DNA of 60,008 nt, the filler included, from Basidiobolus ranarum (lineage: Eukaryota): NCBI GenBank assembly GCA_040143965.1. It is 12 parts of 12 records of this genome, joined end to end, with 100 filler letters (N's around TTAATTAATTAA, not from the genome) between each part and the next. Parts side by side here need not be neighbours in the genome. Positions count along the whole stretch, not along the records: positions 10,049 to 14,968 come from JASJQH010001783.1; 11 more parts are not named here. The stretch is one strand, 5' to 3'. Position numbers and translations under genes: made by a program. This document shows positions 1,626 through 32,632 of this stretch, piece after piece (position 1 is the stretch's first letter; every line of letters begins with the position of its first letter). The notes under the pieces were generated by a model. The model had not been told where the DNA came from and searched no databases. It saw nothing but the letters and a program-made list of their open reading frames with translations.

Positions 1626-4600
1626 GAAATCACACAGGTCAGTGCTATCACTAAATCCCAATATTGCCTGATCTATGGAACTTGGATCTTCCTATATCTG
1701 ATGATGCTAGAAAGCAAATTTTGTACTTGTCCCAGGAATATTCACACAGTAATAGTTACACCCTTCATTCAGATTGCTTGTTTAAATAAATCATTTGTAC
1801 AAATCATGTTACATGACCTGGAAATAGATCGGTTTAGAGATATCTTGGGATTATTTATGGTTTAATGAGATGATCAAAAGCTGTGGAAGATGTCACAGTA
1901 AATTCCCTAATTGAGTTAAATAACTACGGTTCCATGATATGAATTACTTTTAGGAATGATTTACTCGTGGTTTTATTCCCAAGACGACAGTAACTCTATT
2001 TAGTATGCTCTTTCGAGTCGCCTCTAAGCAATGCATCATTTATGTGGGACACAGCTGCAAAAGCTCGATCCATCTGGATTCCTTTTTTAACTGAGTTAGT
2101 CTTGGCCACCTTGATCCACCACGTACTGACAACTTGAGCATATCTGCAAGTCTAATTTCGCCATCATACTGGCCTATGATCTGTCCAGTCATTCAATGTA
2201 GCAATTGGTAATATCTCACATATTTCAATCGAGAAATCGTATCTGACTCGGAATGAATCATTTGGAGATGAAATTGTATCTTACTACTGGAGTTACACTG
2301 ATATTCTACCAGGTCTACACCATCAGTTTTTGTCGTTCAGTGCAAGATATCACAGCCAGTAGGTACTTTACTTTGTTACACTTTCGTAAATAAGAAACCA
2401 TGTGCATATTTCTCACAATACAGGTAAAATACTTAAAGTAAATCCCATGGTCATCAGGAATACTGCTTACTATGCTCAATTTATTGAGGATAGGGCAACT
2501 GCCATCGATACCGAGGATTATTTATCCACAATATCAGGGAAAATCCCTCCCTTCTCCAGTGATTTGGTGGTGGAGATGAGGATGGGGAGATATTGTCTTT
2601 CGGCGATTCATGCTACATATGTCTTGTCTTAGAGCTAGACAATCAAGTATCTTGAAGAAACTAGACCTGGTTAGGCCACTGATGATGGTTGTCACGCATC
2701 AGTGATTGTACAAATTGCTTGTAAATAACTAACGCTCCAACAAGTCTGAACATGAAGATTACCCCCTTAATTTGTTCCAAGTAAATCCATACCGTTATTG
2801 GTAAGGATTGACCACTTACCTATCTAAATATGATTAATGTTCGTTTGATTTTATTCACACGATTACAGGCTAAAGGTCATAGTTTTAGATGCTATCTTTT
2901 GAAGAAAAGTTCAGTGAAACCTAGTTAAATATAAGCCATGACAAAGCCAATACTGAATGCCATCGATTCTGGTAATGAAGGGATGATCGAAACAACAGTA
3001 AGACAAAAAAATGCCTGTTTATTGGCATCGGTAGGGATGAGTTCGAAAGTATAGATTTGTTATCTCCCACAGCTATAGGTCTGGTTATAAAAAGTTGTCA
3101 GGGTCATCTTAAATTACGTCTTCTGCTAATGGTAGGACCAACGAAAGTTAGAAACTTCCTGTGGGTTAAAACTGTATTAGAACCTTGCCTCTTGGAGTCT
3201 AGTCGCGATAAATTCATCTATTGGAAAAATAATTGTGGGTATTTTATGGATATATCAAATTGATAGAGAGGGGAGATAGAACCCTTGTTTGAGATCAAGT
3301 GGATAATCAATATCGCAGTTGAAACAAAGCCAACTTAGGACGTAGTATTTGGTCCGTACTACTTTATATATATATATAATCCACTGGTTTCAGAATCCCT
3401 GAAATATCAAATATTTTAAGATCAGACACCTAGAAGTTATTGCATTCTTGATGAAAGACAGCTAATAAACATGTACGTAGTGCAAAGTTTTGGTGTAGAG
3501 ATGAACTTGTTACGTGGGAAGTTGGAATGTCTGGTTGACATGTTGTAATTAGTGGTTTTAATATTCCCGAAGATATAAATGTTGGATGAGAATGTCCTTT
3601 AATTGCTTTGGAAATTGAGAAGAGCGTTGTATTACACAGGATAGGGGTAAGTGTAGAACAATACAGGAATCATGGGGATAGATGAACTTTTAAAGACGAT
3701 ATTTATGCATTCAGCATACAATGATATAGATATAGTAACAAGGGTATGACTCTGCACAGCTACGGATGAAAAGGAAGAAATGGAAGAGCAGGACATGCCT
3801 CAGTCCAAGAGAGATTTAGGAGTATATTGCAATTTCGACATGCCAGCTGTCTCCGCTGAGAACGTATTATTGCGAGGTATAATATATTGAACTCATGGAA
3901 TCTATATATCAAGAGCAGGTCATTGTTCTCGAGGTAAGACCAATAGAAGAATTGGATTGGTATCACAGCTTCACCATTCTCTTGGATTCATGTGTTAGAT
4001 AGCTTATCCTCCACCCCTGGGAGTTAAGTCTTTACGGTCAGTGCGTAATTACTGTGCCAGTAATGAGCCAACTTTAACATTGCCAAGATCAAAATCCGCC
4101 GAATCTCCAGATATGCAGATATTGATAAAGCCTGATCAAAGGGGTGGATTGGTGAGCAACTAAGTGATAACTCATACCGGTGCAGTTAGATCAGAGCTCA
4201 TTTGAAATTTTTTTATTTATGATGATTGCTTCAAGTTTATCATTACAACGACCACGCACGACTGAACTTCACTAATGTGTCATGGTTGTTCCTGAAATCA
4301 TCGCAATGCTAAATACTTCAATACAAATAATGAAGGATCCCCTAGTAAATGTACCTACGGATTTAAGAACTTTGGCATGAGCTGAACTGGTGTATACTAT
4401 CTATAGAGTTTACTGATAGGATTAGAATTGGAAATATTGATGAAGATAATAAAGATACTTATTGAGTCAATTTGTTCAAAAGAATAATGCCTATTATACC
4501 TATGAATTATGAGCTCTGATGAATCTTTAGCTAACAATACAAATAAAGCATGTCTTCACCTTTGCAGGCATACTCTCGCGGTATTATATTATCATGTCTG

Positions 4601-4925: not shown

Positions 4926-5025
4926 NNNNNNNNNNNNNNNNNNNNNNNNNNNNNNNNNNNNNNNNNNNNTTAATTAATTAANNNNNNNNNNNNNNNNNNN
5001 NNNNNNNNNNNNNNNNNNNNNNNNN
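4926..5025. other. Artificial contig linker (N44-TTAATTAATTAA-N44); identical linkers at 9949-10048, 14969-15068, 19988-20087, 25005-25104, 30018-30117, 35023-35122, 40025-40124, 45025-45124, 50023-50122, 55016-55115
   Basis: Identical 100-bp spacer with stops in all six frames. The segments between linkers decrease in length from 4925 to 4893 bp, and genes are cut at the linkers. Confidence 0.98.
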
Positions 5026-6264: not shown

Positions 6265-6561
6265 TCAGCAAACAATGAAGATGCTCTTCCAACCATAACT
6301 GGATGATTGCTCAGAGTTTGCATCACTCTTTAATACTGAATGGGCGGCTCCGCTACATCCAGATGCATTATAGACACGTCCACTTTGGCCCTCAGCGTAC
6401 CACTTGTAACTACCTCTGTAGGGAATGGAAGAGCAGCCACATTTTCCAATGCTCTTACTAGATCCAGAATAATGACCCCCGGAGTAAGCTACAAAATTGC
6501 TAGCATAGGCGGAAGTGCAGAGAAGAGTGGCAGCAATAGCGTAGAGACTGATGCGGACCAT
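6265..6561 (-). CDS. Secreted MiAMP1-like (beta-barrelin) antimicrobial peptide, copy 1
   Basis: 20-aa signal peptide ending AYA. The mature chain has KCGCS, GQSGRVYNASGCSGAAH and C-terminal GWKSIFIVC, matching the recalled plant MiAMP1 motifs KCGCS, GQTAALYNQAGCSGVAH and GWKSIFIQC. TATAAAA at 6597-6603 (- strand). Confidence 0.88.
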   Translation of the reverse strand: MVRISLYAIAATLLCTSAYASNFVAYSGGHYSGSSKSIGKCGCSSIPYRGSYKWYAEGQSGRVYNASGCSGAAHSVLKSDANSEQSSSYGWKSIFIVC

Positions 6562-8758
6562 TATGTGGAATGAAGATTACCAAGGCGGTGCTCCCTTTTT
6601 ATAACTCTCAAAGCTCCGCCATGTAGTAAATAGAGTAAAAGATCACCGACTCTCAAATATAGCTCATGTACGATGTACTACCACTTGATTAGTACTATAC
6701 ATAAATATATTTACGTTGTCCAGAAATGGCCCTACCTCTCCAACCAACAATACCGTTGAATAACACCTATGTTTTATGTATTAGTCATATACTCTTTCAA
6801 CTAAAAAGATTGCTCATTCTTCTTCATCATCACTGGAGCACCAATTTCTGAATGTACTCAATAGCTAACTAGTGTGCAACTGCTGGTACTCTTATTCTTA
6901 TCAACACAGCTGAAATTCTGAAAGTAGTTGTTGTAATATCCCACTCATCCTTCACCTCATGCTGCGTATTGATACCCTATTTGGGATCTGCACTCTCATC
7001 ATCAGTTTCATATTACCGCAAATACTCACGAAATGGGTCAGGATTGACAAAGGAGGCCAACTACCTTCTACCTCCTCTTTAGAGCTTTATAATCTCGCTC
7101 TAACTAATTTTCTATATCTGTGCTGACCCTCCCCCAGTGCCATATTAATCTGATTCGGTGTTCCATTAGCAGGAATCCACTTATTAATAGAGATTCTTTA
7201 CTTGGAGTTTTATATCACGATATAAGTTAATCTCTTCATAAGTGTGATCAATATTTGGGTAGTACGGATCTATGTGTTGGTGTTTATGGTAGTTAGTAAG
7301 TTTCTCCGGATTCACTGCACTATTTTATATCGCATAAGCGAGATATTCCATCACAAGTAGTGACCACGAATTGGTTCCCATTTTAATAGGATATACATGG
7401 TACACCTTAGTTTGGTACGAGCATACTCAAGGACCGACTGTCAGAGACAGTATGACTCCAAGTGAGTATGTATTGGAAAATGATATGTATAAATGATCAT
7501 TTCAATGCTATACTAAATCAAAGTCTAACGTATTCATATCGTATTCATATATACGATGACTCTTTGCATGGGTCAGAAGTAAAATCCCACAAATGGAATC
7601 AACAAACAAGTTTACCATTTGGAAATACAATATTTATGTTAAATACTATGATCACATGATTAACCAGAATCAATCGACTTCGTACAAATTGATTTACTGC
7701 AGATATTGATGCGCATACATGTTACCAGTGGTGGCGAATGTACAAAAGATATATATAAGTTTGTGTAAGCGTTTTAGAAGTTATCTTGAGCTAGGCCTAG
7801 CCGAATTATTTTATTATTTGGTTAGTAGTGTTATTTGTAACAATATGAGAAGGCTTTTGTTTAATAACATCTAACCCATAGTTGCTATATATTAATTCAT
7901 ACAAGTGTAAGAAATATAGCGATAATTGACATTAAAAGCATGAAGCAACACAGTGGATAGTTACATGAATACGAAAAATAACTTACTATCAATAAGTTTT
8001 ACTTTCAGAAAGATGAAAAGAAATCCTTTTTTGCATATATGCACTATTCAATCCACTTGGCACATATATTTCGGTCTTTGCCCTAGTAAAATGACTCGTG
8101 TTACGTATACTCAAGTATGCCACTAGCAAACTACCACAGGAATGACACAGCTTCACGCAGAGACTATCTTCACTATTCCTTAGTCAGAATCTGGTATTGA
8201 TAGATTAAATCAATGTGTGTTTCGTATGCAAAGTTATTGCAATACTCGCTTAATCTATGGAATGTATCTTTGCGCTTAATTTTTAATAAATTTAGAATCG
8301 GCATAGTCTGGATGGGAAAAAAGAAGTATACTTTCAGATCGAGGGGAAATATCAATCCCTTTTATTTGTTGCACTCATTGAATGCTACTGATTGAGTGTG
8401 TTTTATTGATGCATTCAGACTCATAATCTCATATATTACTATCAATGTGAACATAAAGGGTGCTAACAAGCTAGTTTAATTAGTGGATACGTTCACTTAG
8501 AAAATTACCGACCTACTTTGCGTGTCCCGCCTGGAAGTAGGAACTGAAGTTGAAAGCACCGTAAGATACACTGTTACTATTCAGATATATTCAAATCTAA
8601 TACTGGTAAGATAATCCATCTCTTAGATCAACTAACATGTGATAATTTGACCATGTTTTATTTGATAATTGGTAGTATGCTCGAGTCAGTGATTGTAAAA
8701 ATTACAAGCGAATACATAGGGAGATAATGCTTCCATTACCATAAGCAAATAGTTGGAC

Positions 8759-9055
8759 TCAGCATACGATGAAAATACTCTTCCAGCCATAACTCGATGA
8801 TTGCTCAGAGTTTGCATCACTCTTTAATACGGAGTGCGCAGCTCCGCTACATCCAGATCCATTATAGACACGTCCACTTTGGCCCTCAGCGTACCACTTG
8901 TAACTACCTCTGTAGGGAATGGAAGAGCAGCCACACTTTCCAATGCTCTTGCTAGATCCAGAATAATGACCTCCGGAGTAAGCCACAAAGTTACTAGCAT
9001 AGGCGGAGGTGCAGAGAAGAGCGGCAGTAATAGCGTAGAGATTGATGCGGACCAT
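8759..9055 (-). CDS. Secreted MiAMP1-like antimicrobial peptide, copy 2
   Basis: Same as copy 1 except for 3 signal-peptide changes and mature A46G. TATAAAA at 9091-9097 (- strand). Confidence 0.88.
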   Translation of the reverse strand: MVRINLYAITAALLCTSAYASNFVAYSGGHYSGSSKSIGKCGCSSIPYRGSYKWYAEGQSGRVYNGSGCSGAAHSVLKSDANSEQSSSYGWKSIFIVC

Positions 9056-10113
9056 CTTGTTGAATGAAGATTACCAAAGCGATGCCTCCTTTTTATAACT
9101 CACAAAACCCCACCATGTAGCAAATATGGCAAATGATCTCTCGCTGCTAAATATATTTCGTGTAAAGGTATGTTACCCTAACTTGAGTAAAAATATTACT
9201 TGATATTAACCTTCGTACTGTATATTCAAATTGTGCGAAACCGGTAAAAGCCACTCAGTCAACATTCGTATTTTCCGTCCATGACAGTTACCGCCCAATA
9301 ATTATATTCACCATAATAGTCAGACACTATCTGCAAAAGACACAATACCTCTACTCCCACACTCGAGTGCTAATTGCTAAACGTACTTGAGGACTTCAGC
9401 AAATGTTAGCAATTGTATTCTTATCAGCAACGAAAGAAATCTTGACAGTAATTGTTGTTTTGCTCCACTCATCCTTCACTTCATGCAGCTTACTGATACC
9501 CTATTTGGGATTTACACTCTCATTATCAGCTTCATATTACCGCACATACTCACGAAATGAGGCAGGATTGATAAAGCAGACTGACCATAATCTACGTTCA
9601 CTTTGGATCTTGATGATATCTCACCCTTTCACTCTAACCTCTTTTCTAGATCAGGGTTGCCCCCCAGTGGTATATAAATATAATCTAGTTTGTCACTAGC
9701 AGGAATTAACTTGCTAATAATGAATCTTTATTTGGAGGTTTATATCGTGACAGAGTTATTCTTTCCATACATGTGAGTAATATTTAAGTAGAGCAGGTAC
9801 ACTTGCTATCGTTTCTGGTGCTCTGTACTTGGAGTTGGTTGCCCTAGATCCATTACAATATTTCATAATCAAGATATTGCGCAACAATGAATGACCGCGA
9901 ATCGATTCCCTACCTTAATAGGTTATATATGGTACAGCCAATTTTGGTNNNNNNNNNNNNNNNNNNNNNNNNNNNNNNNNNNNNNNNNNNNNTTAATTAA
10001 TTAANNNNNNNNNNNNNNNNNNNNNNNNNNNNNNNNNNNNNNNNNNNNAGCAATTTCATTACACCAAGTTTACCATCTGAAAATTTCAATGCCATTCAAA
10101 AAGCGTTCAAAAT

Positions 10114-12153
10114 CTAAGTCAAAATCGGCTTCCAAGCCAAAGCCTGCTGGCCCAAAAGATCCTCTTCGTCAAGGTCATCATCCATATTGTTCAAGAAGTT
10201 TTGATGATGCAGAGGATTGATAGTCCCATTTTTACGCTCGTATTGTTCGTGTACAGCATTTCGGAATCTTTGCTTGACCGCCTCCTCATCTTCCATACGA
10301 TGAACTGCATATGACACATCAATGGCTTCTTTGATGGAGATATTTGGAGTAACAGGTAACGGCATAGGATGTCGATCTTTGCGAGTCAGGGTTAGAGATG
10401 GGCCATGGAATGGGGTAGTGACATGTTCATTTGTAGGATGGAACCCAGAGTCAGACTCAAGAGGTGAAGATGCCTCAGTAAAAGTAGAGTCAATCTCCTC
10501 AACCTCGGAGTGGAATTGTACACGCTTAGTAATCTAGTGTTTTTAGAAGAATAAGATTAATGATAGACATGAATGAATAAAGTTCGACCCAGTATCTTAC
10601 ACTTGTCTTGATCCATGGATGAGCAAAAAAATCGTCAATTGTGTACCGAGCAGAAGGATCGACGGTCAATAGTTGAGATATCAGATCCTTGGCTAAAGAA
10701 TAGCGCAATTTTAGAAATAAGATCTTACATGTGCATAAACTCATCTTTTACCAGTATCTGAGATATCATCCCACCATGGGGATAAAAACGAATATTGCCC
10801 ATTGGCAACTTTCTCTGTAAGAGCTTGAATATCTTCATCATAGAATGGTGGGAATCCACAGAGTCTGAGTAGGGAAATGTGTGTGAATTGGTCGAAGAGT
10901 AGGCGGAAAATTTCAAATAAAAATAATATACTTACAGAGTGTACAGTACACAACCTAAGGCCCACATGTCTACCGACTTACTATAGCGTTCGTCTCTGAC
11001 AACTTCGGGCGCTGTATATCCGAGTGCTATGGAATTAAGGATTTATAGTATTGACGAAAGAGGAATCATTTATAGTTCAATTCAAAAAAGATATCAGTTC
11101 CGCAAGGAGTCATAGTGTCACTGTTCCATACTACTTTGGACAAACCGAAATCAGCTATCTTAACTACACCTATTCCTCCTCCACCTACTCCTTCGATAAA
11201 ATCGCCTTCATCTAGCTTCTCCTCGTCTAACTCCACAGGCTCATCTGACATCTGATCCTCGTATCTATATGGGATGGCTTGAAAGAGCAAATTTTCAGGC
11301 TTTATATCTCTACAAATATATAGTTAACGTCTGTCAAAATGCGTAAAACTTAATACCAAAAATACCTATGTACTACTCCTTTTTCTTCGTGCAAGTAGCG
11401 AATCCCCTGGGCAACTTGTAGTATAACGTGACGTGTAAGATGCTCCGAAAAGTAGGTGAGTTTAACAATTCTATGAAAGAGCTCTCCTCCCCCTAAAAGC
11501 TCCAAAATGAGATAATAAAAATCCTTGGTGTCTTTAAAATCCAACAGCCGAGCCACATTGGGGTGACTAATATTACGCATGATAGTCACTTCTTTTAGTA
11601 TATTTCCTCGCTAAATTTACGATAAAATGGTAAGAAAAAACTAATTTTCCACCGAGATGATATATTCTTACTTGGATTGCATTAAGTTGAAACTTCCGAA
11701 CAATTTTCACAGCTACGAATTTATGACCCGTCCGGTCAAATGCCTTATATACGTTACTGAACGCACCACTGTTGAAATGAGGGTTAGCTTGTTACAAATG
11801 AAACCAAAGAGTCAGTGAAATAATTAAAGCTATGGACTTACTCTCCTAGCTTTTCCAATAATTTGTATCTATCCAAGTCCGGATAATGAGGAATATCAGG
11901 GTCACATTTGAGGTCGCACTCTTCAAGCGGTTTGGAAGCTTGGCAATTTTTCATGGGATTTCCTCCTTCAGGTACCCCTTGAGTAACTGGGGTCACTATA
12001 GAGCTTTCATGGATACTTGGAATCATAGGCTCGTGAACTAGAATACAAGGAGATTTTTAGTATCGACAGCGCATTATTTTGAAGTCGTTTTTCCTAAAAA
12101 ACCAAATTACCAGAAGTAGTGCTCTTTAAAAAGCTTCTAATCTGCTTCATCAT
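10114..12153 (-). CDS. CAMK-group Ser/Thr kinase of the fungal Rck1/Rck2/Srk1 (MAPK-activated) type; 9 exons
   Basis: Spliced motifs [23 protein letters not shown], the Rck/Srk-typical [51 protein letters not shown] and [11 protein letters not shown]. Seven GT-AG introns plus one AT-AC intron. Confidence 0.92.
11024..11094 (-). other. U12-type (minor spliceosome) AT-AC intron, 71 nt
   Basis: 5' ATATCTTTTT, branch TCCTTAAT (11041-11034), 3' CAC. Removal restores GGA ACT G|TC GGA TAT = G-T-V-G-Y-T-A-P-E. Confidence 0.88.
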
Positions 12154-14449
12154 CTTAAAGAAAGTTGAAAGAAATATATTACCAGTATTGGAAGATAGGA
12201 TTTGGAAAGATAGTGTTGGGTATTTAGCATATATCTTAGGATCTAGTTGCTTGAGAATTGTTAACAGTCAAGAGAACACTGGAAATACAAGTCTAATGCG
12301 GATGGCAATGGTAACGGGTGAATAACAAGATATTGGAAAGGGCGATAGTTGTGAGCTCTATTTTAGCTTCTTACACGCTTGGTTCAATGTCTTAATTGGC
12401 TTTAGTATTTGGGTCGCTTGAGGCCCTTGAGGCTTTAAGTAGGTGGCTGATTTTGGCGTATCCCAAGACCAATCCGATTTCAGGTATTATTTATGCTATT
12501 ATTTACTTTTTTACATTTCTCGTTACCTGAGTCTTTCTGATGATCAAATTGCATGGCATATATGCGCCTTTTCACACATATCATGAAACTTGATGGGATC
12601 TGAAACAATGCTCAAGTCAACAATATGGGACCGTCAATTGGCTTGATGCCAGTGCTGGTTGTTGTGAGTCCGTGAACATCGGGTGCTTTATGATGCCAAT
12701 AAGTCTGCAATCGAGCTTCACCAAGAATCCCAGCTGTCTCTGTTCTAAATGAGAACAAACCACATATGACCTCATGCAGGCTGTTACAATTAAAAAATGG
12801 ACTCAAGCTAGTATGCGCTCTAGATCGACCCATCGACAATTTGATTGAATCATAGCTATAAGCACATTATTTCCAGAAATGTGCAGCAATGTCAGCCTGT
12901 GCCTAATTTACTCGGCATTCCCTGTTGGGTGATACATGGCCAATCAGAAGGACTCATTAGGATTACTTAACGAGGCTGCAGCATGACGATAGAGATCCAC
13001 CTGACTAATACCAGTCGTTATTAATTGACGCGGTCATTGATGAAAGAATGATGCAGTTTCTGGGATCTGACTTGAATTCACGTTAATCCGCACCTGAATG
13101 GCTATACAGTGCTTATTGCCATATGAACTCGTAGAAACCTCGAAGCATACTATCTGACATGGGCCTCGATAGGCAAGTCTGATAGCCAACACAGTCTCAC
13201 CTCCAGGGCTCTGGCTACATGTTGGAGCATAAAGTGGATAAGCTTTAGATTGGGCCATTTCTAGTTGCTGACTGAGGAATCCGACAGTTCAGCACATTTG
13301 TCTATTGCTGCATATCATACCCGAGTGTGGCCCGAGATCTGCCCTCGTCATCATACATAAATAATATTCCCTTTCACTCTTACTGGTCATACTGTATCTC
13401 ATCATGATGACTGTCGATTGCTCATTGTGAAACTGATGCAATATCTCTTCATACACTTTACGACTCATGCCCAGTCTCGAAAGAAGTCAACCATCAACGG
13501 ACATGTATGTTTGCGCACGTAGCACAATTTGTGTTTATGCAGTAGTGTTGGGAATATGATGCACGTAGTTTTCGCTGGGTTGTATATATCACCACACCTC
13601 AAAAGCCTTCACTTCTGTTCTGCGTGCCATTGTGCTTAAGCAGTACTTCGCCACCCCCTTTCATGCTGTTTAACATAAAAACAATCAGCTTAAGCTACCT
13701 CACGGCTTAACTAGAACATGATGCACTCAGTAAGAATGTTTATTTTCCCATATGATATTGGAGCCTAGAGAAAGCTACCTATAAGACCACATGATGTAGT
13801 GATAATAAATATTGCTAAAGCAGCACTTAAATTGCAGTTAAATAACACAGCTACAGGTACTATAGCCACTGCCCAATATCCATTCCTGTATATGGAGAAG
13901 TCAATAAATTACTAGAAAATGACCATGCAAAGTATTCCGGAATAAGTTCGATAGATACTCATATCAACTGCACTAGAATACCAGTACCAGATCCCTGGGA
14001 GTTTCCAAATTTAAATGGGTTGGGTATATATGTGCATGACTGGACCATATCTTGAAATACACGGATTGGATCATAATATCCCAGTTTCCCAACATCCTGG
14101 TCAATCCAGGCTTGAGTCTGAGCAACTAATAGAATACGTCCATATAATAGGTGCTAAAAAGGATCATTTCTATGGCTGACTAGATTGATTTATCAACAAC
14201 GTGTCGACCCAATCTGATTAGCGTGATAGTAATGGATAAAACTATTCATATTGTCAATCATTAAAATCCTGGAACACGTTATTTTTATCCTTCGACGAGA
14301 CCGAGTTCAATCCCGTGTCTATTCATCTTTATCGATCGGATCTTCTAGAAATTCGAGCTATTCATGCTGTTGAATTACTACGTAATGTCAAGATGATTCT
14401 TACGAGTTTCATGGTACCCCAAATACGGTGCAAAAGCTATTCTGTTTGA

Positions 14450-14968
<519 letters not shown>

Positions 14969-15068
14969 NNNNNNNNNNNNNNNNNNNNNNNNNNNNNNNN
15001 NNNNNNNNNNNNTTAATTAATTAANNNNNNNNNNNNNNNNNNNNNNNNNNNNNNNNNNNNNNNNNNNN

Positions 15069-30017: not shown

Positions 30018-30119
30018 NNNNNNNNNNNNNNNNNNNNNNNNNNNNNNNNNNNNNNNNNNNNTTAATTAATTAANNNNNNNNNNNNNNNNNNNNNNNNNNN
30101 NNNNNNNNNNNNNNNNNCA

Positions 30120-30635
30120 ACAGCGATAAAACATCTTTTCTCCTACGACCTGATCTCGCCCGAAATTCAGACTGCTCTTCCTGATGGACTGCGCATGAGA
30201 CCTTTGTCAATCAGCGATTACAACAACGGATTTTTAGAGTGTTTGGCTCAGTTGACTTCTGTTGGTGAGATATCTGAAGGCACATTCCTCAGTACATTTG
30301 AGGCCATGCAAAGGGCACACACCTATTATGTGATAGTCATCGAAGACCAAACCACCGAGCGCATTGTAGGGTGTGGGACGTTGTTGGTAGAACATAAGTT
30401 CATACGTGGTTGTGCCAAATCTTCCCACATTGAAGACATCGTTGTCCATGATTCACAAAGAGGGAAAAAACTAGGAGTACAAATAATCGAACAACTCAAA
30501 TATCTTAGTGCGAGATTGGGCTGCTACAAAGTGATCCTAAATACTAGTCAAGCCAATATCGCTTTCTACGAAAAGTGTGGATTAACTCTAAAAGATTACC
30601 AAATGTCTTGTTACCATAGCTCCTCACAGAGTTGA
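30120..30635 (+). CDS. GNA1: Glucosamine-6-phosphate N-acetyltransferase (GNAT); start probably lost at contig edge
   Basis: The frame is open from the contig edge (LFSYDLISPEIQTALPDGLRMRPL); DYNNGFLECLAQLT, LLVEHKFIRG, HIEDIVV, RGKKLG, GCYKVIL, FYEKCG. Confidence 0.93.
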   Translation, partial: TAIKHLFSYDLISPEIQTALPDGLRMRPLSISDYNNGFLECLAQLTSVGEISEGTFLSTFEAMQRAHTYYVIVIEDQTTERIVGCGTLLVEHKFIRGCAKSSHIEDIVVHDSQRGKKLGVQIIEQLKYLSARLGCYKVILNTSQANIAFYEKCGLTLKDYQMSCYHSSSQS

Positions 30636-32632
30636 TGTTAAATCCACCAAGTTGTCAATTTTGATCGTTTTGTCTATGTATTAATAGCTTCTGTAGAGCC
30701 GAATAAAAGTCACTTCATCCTTCCCCTACTTTGATCATTGAAAAGTAAAGATCCATGTATTGGACAGTATCACAATGGTACACAATAAGGGGATTGGAAT
30801 GCCACATTTGCCGTAATTTCATATCTTTATGGTCAATCATAATGAGCATCTTCCTCAATTTTTATCATTGGTGCGCAATGGATATATTAATAGATCTATT
30901 ATAGAGTTTCGGTTATTAAGCGTAGGCAATAAGAGCACAATGCATATTTATATCTCTATTTTTTCATTTCGATTTCGCCCATTTGAAACCTTCGCTAAGT
31001 TGAAGTTAGATTTAGTTGATGAGAAGCCCACTTCAACTAATTATACTCCATCCTGTAGCTAATGATAGGCTGATACTCTCCTAATATGATATCAAATATC
31101 ATAGTTTGGTTGTAATTATGCTTCCTTTAATAAGAAATGGCTGCTATCTTCTCTAATCACGTTGATGCATAATTGTCCACAATAAATTCTGTTAAGTTTT
31201 GATATTAGTATATCCTTTGGCAGATAGTCTACCCTGACAGCCTGGTATATAATTCGGCATTCACTCAGAGAATAATCCTTGAATTCTCATACATGTTCAG
31301 AGATATCATGAGTTAGTTTGTATCATCAATCTCCAGGTTTGCATATTCTTTAATTCGTCAATTTTCTAAGTACTCTCGAAGAAAAAGACTTCCTTCAGCA
31401 CCTTAGCCAGATCAATATTAGATGAATATCGCAAAGCAAATATTATTGTTTTTAGATTCTTTGAAACAAGGGAATTCTTAAATATAGCAACTAATGCTTC
31501 ACAATAGTGCTTGATTGAGCATCACTATCAACGTGCAATTAAGTGATTTAAACTTATATAGCTGTTTGACAGTAAACAATAGACAGTGCATATGCAATTG
31601 AATATATACTAAGAGTCTAACTCACAATTACAATAATAATCCAATACACTTCCAAATTCCCTGATATTTCTAGAGGATCTTGTTTGAGGTATAGTTAAAA
31701 ATGAGAATGTGAATAACTAAGACTCATGTTTACGTGTTAGAAATTTATTGTAATTGCTATCCTTATATTTACAAACCTAACCTCTCCTTGTCAGGTATCT
31801 AAATTGATCAACACTATTTAGTCAAGTATGATTTAGCTCAATATTGGAACATATTCAGTATATATGTCAATATTTCAAGAAGTAGCAGTTTCATACTTAA
31901 ATCTTCAATGTTGTATCAATTGAGCCCAATATAGGTCATGTGGCTTTTACAGATGCTTTGAGTGCTGACCCTAAGTTTTCTTTTTGTATTCTTTCTGAGA
32001 TTTATAAATGGTTCATTTCAGCTCAACAAATAAGTACACCCACAACGAATCATGACTCCTATTTATACAGCATTTTTTGACCTAGAGATCATTGATATGA
32101 AATTATATGCATGAAGTAGGAAGTTGCTATACAGGATATCAATAGCAACCATGCAGCAAAAGCACAATTAAAGCAACACAAAGAAGCAATAAAAGAAGAC
32201 TTGTCTAATCAGGCCTGAAGTATACACTATAGTTAGTATTATTTATTTTAAAATCTGAGCGTGTCCAAAAAGTATTGATCTTCATACTCTAAGTTACCAG
32301 AGATTGCTTAAAGTCACAGTCTTTTTTTGAGTCTGCAAACATTTTTAGGGGTTTTTAGGTCTATAAGCTACTCATGGTGCTCCATATCTATCTTGTAATC
32401 AAGCTCCAATACCAAAGCACATGTCTAATATCCTTTGCAGTATAACAATTCTGCCCAAGAAATGTGAGTGGAATCAATGCAGAGAAATTTGCAAAAATGT
32501 CACCTGATTTTGGATGCTGTCAGAATCTTTCTACCAGATTGTGTCTTTGATATTGTTAAATTAAGAATATATAAACACTGCTGTAGTGATTTATATTTTG
32601 GTATTTAGTCATCTTGCATTTCACCAAGATAT

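Follow-up and report, generated by a model that had tools for sequence, protein, structure and literature searches.

An AT-AC intron with U12-type splice signals in the activation loop of an Srk1/Rck2-type kinase gene of Basidiobolus ranarum

A protein kinase gene of Basidiobolus ranarum is interrupted, in the middle of its activation loop, by 71 nucleotides that begin with AT and end with AC. The locus raises the question of whether this stretch is truly an intron and, if so, which spliceosome removes it. In the current study, we examined the gene in a window of 60,008 nt, meaning the whole stretch of DNA analyzed, and compared it with public gene models, related kinases, and published work on minor introns. 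We conclude, with a probability that we put at roughly 90%, that the stretch at 11094-11024 (minus strand) is a true AT-AC intron of the U12-dependent kind, in a gene for an Srk1/Rck2-type CaMK kinase.

The window is made up of 12 contigs (4925 to 4893 nt) joined by 11 spacers of the form N44-TTAATTAATTAA-N44 (4926-5025, 9949-10048, 14969-15068, and so on); because it consists of joined contigs, gene neighborhood across the spacers is meaningless. The kinase gene lies on the piece at 10049-14968 (4920 nt). By eye, the same contig also carries a GAPDH-like gene (ca. 14567-14968, plus strand), of which the contig end leaves only the 5′ part. Two nearly identical 103-codon open reading frames (ORFs) occur on a single contig of the window (6265-6576 and 8759-9070, minus strand), constituting a local duplication with a spacing of about 2.5 kb. 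Their product appears to be small, signal-peptide-like, and rich in cysteine and in glycine/serine (MVRI.LYAI...CTSAYASNFVAYSGGHYSGSSKSIGKCGC...).

The kinase gene and its public models

The gene occupies 10114..12153 on the minus strand and, in its long model, has nine exons (12153-12111, 12037-11842, 11768-11672, 11610-11366, 11309-11095, 11023-10936, 10864-10752, 10692-10601, and 10533-10114). Its product contains a complete protein kinase domain (Pfam PF00069, E value of 3.8e-73, residues 54 to 342), and its best solved relatives are CaMK1 chains (E value of 4e-67). Between HRD...PENLL and DFG, the kinase has an insert of ca. 36 residues with the run GGGGIG; this insert is absent from CaMK1 in the alignment but common to relatives named RCK2, Srk1, or CAMK1-RCK by their sources. 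In its kinase domain, its CaMK1-like structure matches, and the GGGGIG insert before DFG, the protein resembles the CaMK-like kinases Rck2 of Saccharomyces cerevisiae and Srk1 of Schizosaccharomyces pombe, and, as judged from its sequence, it is a kinase of the CaMK1/RCK (Rck2/Srk1) type. The domain, the CaMK1 matches, the RCK insert, and the splice signals described below all agree with the initial annotation of this locus, which had proposed that an AT-AC intron of the U12 type interrupts the activation loop of such a kinase.

When 11094-11024 is removed, the translation of the nine-exon model equals KAK9760801.1 of B. ranarum (P0241; 502 amino acids) residue for residue, and the public annotation therefore uses the 11095|11023 junction. 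Exon 4 is also 100% identical to KAK9760802.1 (P0001), which is named [quoted passage not shown] and falls into the same cluster. Both of these proteins, as well as the orthologue from Basidiobolus meristosporus (P0002), read TPCGTVGYTAPE across the junction. It had been predicted that standard gene callers would misannotate this gene. This prediction fails here because the public models already remove exactly 11094-11024. The designation “variant 2” is the sole hint that RNA evidence underlies these models.

The two public B. ranarum models differ in their annotated starts: the long model has an upstream exon (12153-12111) followed by a 73-nt GT-AG intron, and variant 2 begins at an internal ATG at 12026. 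Both stop at the TAG at 10116-10114, 65 nt from the contig end (window positions 10049-10116, minus strand). The B. meristosporus protein runs ca. 90 residues further, and similarity to the B. ranarum kinase is gone from about EED on. The annotated C terminus is probably an artifact, caused either by the break in the contig or by a last intron that was overlooked.

Splice signals and the predicted consequences of retention

The gene has eight introns of 56 to 73 nt, of which seven are GT-AG and one is AT-AC. The seven GT-AG introns have the donors GTAATT, GTAAGT, GTAAGA, GTATTT, GTAAGT, GTAAAA, and GTAAGA and end in YAG. The AT-AC intron (11024..11094, minus strand; the fourth of eight introns in the long model) is in phase 1, has a G+C content of 27%, opens with ATATCTTTTT, and closes with CAC, the 3′ splice site AC being at 11024..11025. 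The exon upstream of it (11095..11309, minus strand) encodes the RCK-type insert (GGGGIG), DFG, and the activation loop as far as TPCGT, and it ends at 11095 with ...ACT CCT TGC GGA ACT G. The exon that follows (10936..11023, minus strand; (V)...(L)) opens at 11023 with TC GGA TAT ACA GCG CCC GAA. In the spliced sequence, G|TC forms a valine codon, giving TPCGT-V-GYTAPE.

The consensus of U12-type donors is RTATCCTT. The 5′ splice site of the AT-AC intron, ATATCTTT (11087..11094, minus strand), agrees with the consensus ATATCCTT at seven of eight positions, with T in place of C at +6, and the exon contributes G at −1 and T at −2. The branch-point motif, TCCTTAAT (11034..11041, minus strand), likewise matches TCCTTAAC at seven of eight positions; T replaces C at its last position, and the CC is kept. 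This motif ends 10 nt from the last base of the intron, and its second A (11035), which is the predicted branch A, is 11 nt from that base. Only TCCATAGCAC stands between the motif and the 3′ end, which leaves no room for a polypyrimidine tract. On rereading, the coordinates and motifs that had been given for the intron, its donor, its branch motif, and its CAC end, including the variant +6 position, all proved correct.

In several respects, this intron is like the U12-type AT-AC introns of animals and plants: it has AT-AC termini, an ATATC-type donor, and a branch motif of the TCCTTAA type some 10 nt before the 3′ end, it lacks a polypyrimidine tract, its phase is nonzero, and it is a lone minor intron among major ones. 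It differs from the canonical introns of those organisms in the T at +6 of the donor and the T at the last position of the branch motif. It is also very short, and in this respect it resembles the neighboring fungal introns rather than the U12-type introns of animals and plants. The features that set it sharply apart from its seven neighbors, namely, the AT-AC termini, the donor, the branch motif, the branch distance, and the missing polypyrimidine tract, fit the minor class. So does its phase, as minor introns are reported to be biased against phase 0 (PMC10639083).

We infer the type of spliceosome, the branch point, and any kinetic consequence of this intron. If minor splicing follows its established course here, ATATCTTT and TCCTTAAT would be recognized jointly across the short intron by the U11/U12 di-snRNP, and U6atac would then displace U11 from the donor. 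Attack on the 5′ splice site would come from the A at 11035, and the AC, 11 nt further downstream, would be picked as the 3′ splice site because of its distance from that A. With T at +6, a G-U wobble would take the place of one G-C pair with U11/U6atac; judging from the pairing of these snRNAs, this should be tolerated. Joining of G and TC into a valine codon would restore the activation/P+1 loop, TPCGTVGYTAPE.

Were the intron retained, the ORF of the kinase would gain nine extra codons (DIFFELNYK) and then meet an in-frame TGA at 11066..11068 (minus strand), as had been noted initially. Because the stop follows after nine codons, such a protein would be without the APE motif and the C-lobe, and it would be inactive. 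One possibility is that rate-limiting minor splicing of this intron gates the output of a stress kinase. There is a human precedent, in that minor introns have been proposed to act as switches through the unstable U6atac, which is stabilized by p38MAPK (PMC3728624), and the Srk1/Rck2 kinases are MAPK activated according to the names given by their sources; retention would lead to a premature stop. Nevertheless, we consider such gating improbable. A search by word matching and length yielded 24 short ORF-type RCK relatives from 28 candidates. Eighteen of these run straight through TPCGTVGYTAPE, with no intron of any kind at this point; the other six end before the motif, and none of the 24 carries an AT-AC read-through tail after TPCGT. 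Since 18 of 24 relatives run through and none reads into the intron, this kinase family works without it. Furthermore, regulatory roles of minor splicing have been argued to be lineage specific, and the same source found no link to proliferation in another fungus rich in minor introns (PMC10639083). The intron is one of a few hundred minor introns to be expected in the genus, and nothing points to a special role for it. In three of the six relatives that end early, the sequence diverges directly behind VVWD(Q/E), suggesting that an intron lies a few codons upstream in these three.

Which spliceosome and which junction

Several published findings bear on whether B. ranarum can splice such an intron. 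The sister species, Basidiobolus meristosporus, is reported to have 249 minor introns (0.554%), the highest density in fungi (PMC10639083), and Olthof and colleagues count 237 (PMC11347168). High-confidence U11, U12, and U6atac genes are described in several mucoromycote and zoopagomycote species; for B. meristosporus itself, U11, U12, and U6atac are reported, together with a putative, divergent U4atac at a lowered threshold (PMC11347168). By comparison, the other survey describes no convincing minor introns in Ascomycota or Basidiomycota, and in Dikarya, the hosts of Rck2 and Srk1, it reports most or all minor snRNAs as missing (PMC10639083). The host is an early-diverging fungus, Basidiobolus belonging to the zoopagomycote lineage. 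The B. meristosporus orthologue of the kinase is 89% identical over exon 4 and, in a comparison at the protein level, reads the same spliced sequence. A working minor spliceosome in B. ranarum is thus supported indirectly, by the work on B. meristosporus; an Rfam scan of the window (gathering threshold and E value of ≤1) gave no matches. The presence of a minor spliceosome in the Basidiobolus lineage is already published and is not a discovery of this study. Because the genus is known for its fungal-record density of minor introns, the AT-AC intron is one more ordinary example of a class already described.

Our literature search found no minor intron described in a kinase activation loop. The catalogues of the two surveys may already list the orthologue of this intron. 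Judged by title, nothing relevant was found on a U12-type intron in a calmodulin-dependent protein kinase, and the search on B. ranarum genome annotation and introns found nothing on this topic. The B. ranarum records may postdate both surveys.

It could be argued that the AT-AC intron is instead spliced by the major (U2-type) spliceosome or that it is “minor-like” and usable by both machineries. A G at exon position −1 is reported to be enriched in minor-like introns, which can be bound by U2AF1 and are perhaps also seen by the major spliceosome (PMC11347168). The T at donor position +6 and the T ending the branch motif are points against our assignment, and a classifier based on position weight matrices might score the intron below the best minor introns. 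However, the G at −1 is preceded by T and not by A, such that the exon lacks a terminal A(−2)G(−1). The donor, moreover, resembles the U12 consensus and not the GTRAGT-like pattern of the other seven introns of the gene, and the AT terminus argues against the use of U1/U2 at 11094. The branch motif retains the CC that is tied to recruitment of the minor spliceosome (PMC11347168), and only 10 nt, with no polypyrimidine tract, separate this motif from the 3′ end. We therefore regard processing by the major spliceosome, alone or shared, as quite improbable, and favor U12-dependent removal.

To what extent is the junction itself forced by the protein? Within the tested range, we enumerated all donor/acceptor pairs that stay in frame and introduce no stop (n = 3425). 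Twenty-nine of these preserve TPCGT followed, after zero to three residues, by GYTAPE, and no GT-AG or GC-AG pair is among the 29, in keeping with the earlier statement that no GT-AG junction rebuilds TPCGTVGYTAPE. The exact peptide arises from 11094/11024 (AT-AC) alone among the 3425 pairs. The nearest in-frame GT-AG (11121/11027) and GC-AG (11103/11027) pairs both remove part of the activation loop, the threonine-cysteine-glycine segment.

The sole other pair with recognized termini among the 29 is AT-AG (11094/11027), which uses an in-frame AG (11027..11028, minus strand) 3 nt upstream of the AC and would lengthen the activation loop by one residue. Noncanonical termini do exist among minor introns (PMC10639083), and such a product could in principle be the main or a frequent one. 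We find this very unlikely. The search for relatives of the kinase gave 2144 significant hits among 2380 candidates; among the best 120 longer relatives listed, T.CGT.GY.APE is uninterrupted in 119, and in all 119 the spacing from CGT to GY is exactly one residue. Additionally, both B. ranarum models use the AC, and a mere 8 nt separate the AG from the predicted branch A, compared with 11 nt for the AC. The one exception among the 120, a protein of Armillaria luteobubalina (P0047), has no VGYTAPE after TPCGT (TPCGTIVKDERYSKS...); the gene model of that record appears to be in error.

That there is no intron at all, the gene being a pseudogene or encoding a truncated kinase, or that errors in sequencing or assembly have given a GT-AG intron the AT and AC ends seen here, might be entertained for a highly fragmented assembly (contigs of ca. 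4.9 kb) in which read-through runs into a stop, but the chance of this is practically negligible given nine intact exons, a kinase core 77 to 97% identical to the B. meristosporus orthologue (tblastn pieces), the great improbability of two independent errors falling exactly at both ends and also creating U12 motifs, and the independent occurrence of the same AT-AC arrangement in the distant kinase gene described below.

The signals of the AT-AC intron were also weighed against chance. A relaxed composite ([AG]TATC[CT]TT, then TCCTT[AG]A[CT], then AC/AG 8 to 16 nt past the branch A) occurs once in the 60-kb window on both strands, at the 11024-11094 intron. It was present at least once in 83 of 300 dinucleotide-preserving shuffles (shuffle mean, 0.36), and because of this the composite motif alone is unconvincing in 60 kb. 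That the single occurrence falls exactly on the frame-restoring junction, with both termini differing from GT/AG, is far beyond chance.

A strict U12 intron motif had no occurrence in the window, and a looser one had three more (2647-2781 and 31210-31292 on the plus strand and 7752-7415 on the minus strand). According to the ORF listing, none of these three lies in evident coding sequence, and they were set aside as chance or untranslated. The candidate at 31210-31292 (83 nt) has a perfect U12-type donor, ATATCCTTTG (ATATCCTTT), has TCCTTGAA near its end, and terminates in AC. It sits in apparently noncoding DNA downstream of a GNAT-like ORF (30066-30635) and could be a chance occurrence or an intron in an untranslated region.

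A shared intron position in a distant kinase gene

A metagenome scan for TPCGT codons followed by G|RTATCYTT returned seven loci. Five of these have no kinase context and were dismissed as chance. The remaining two (L003 and L007) represent the same CaMK-like kinase gene from an extremely AT-rich eukaryote. In L003, a U12-like AT-AC intron of 91 nt lies at 7635-7725 (plus strand), and the L007 match is at 3655-3678. The L003 gene reads ...ICDFGMAKKIGNNLANTPCGT, G|ATATCCTTAA...TTTCTTAACTCTCAAAC|TG AAC TAT GTT GCC CCC GAA, and splicing restores TPCGTVNYVAPE. As in the window gene, the intron follows the first base of the V codon past TPCGT, such that codon position and phase are the same, as are the AT-AC termini and the U12-like character of donor and branch. 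The next L003 intron (GT type, phase 2, in the leucine codon after LY.L) corresponds in position to intron 5 of the window gene. However, an L003 intron near HRD differs in position from those of the window gene, and the kinase belongs to a different CaMK subfamily: it is without the RCK insert, has NYVAPE rather than GYTAPE, and shows ca. 47 to 52% identity in the flanking exons.

The 24 short ORF-type RCK relatives described above, as collected by word matching and length, yielded no further instance of the AT-AC intron, which speaks against its being widely conserved. Two adjacent positions shared with a distant CaMK gene make us lean towards an old intron that may have been retained in Basidiobolus, on data that are thin as regards retention versus gain. 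A more far-reaching proposal is that an ancient CaMK minor intron was kept by Basidiobolus and the AT-rich eukaryote and lost in most fungal RCK genes and that, in addition, Srk1 output depends on the minor spliceosome. This conjunction has, in our estimation, only a small chance of being correct. If true, it would imply a feed-forward loop in the stress pathway of Basidiobolus, akin to the p38-U6atac switch proposed for human cells.

With the public gene models already splicing it, the AT-AC intron matters little beyond correct annotation. Its short length, unique junction, and premature stop on retention nonetheless make it usable for measuring the efficiency of minor splicing in Basidiobolus, and the position held in common with the distant CaMK-like gene adds one small piece of evidence on whether the minor introns of Basidiobolus were retained or gained. 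As for the source of that gene, the L003 contig also carries, by eye, a Prp6-like HAT-repeat ORF and a divergent ADP/ATP-carrier-like gene, the latter being at most ca. 41 to 44% identical to anything else in the collection, with its best named relatives at ca. 41%.
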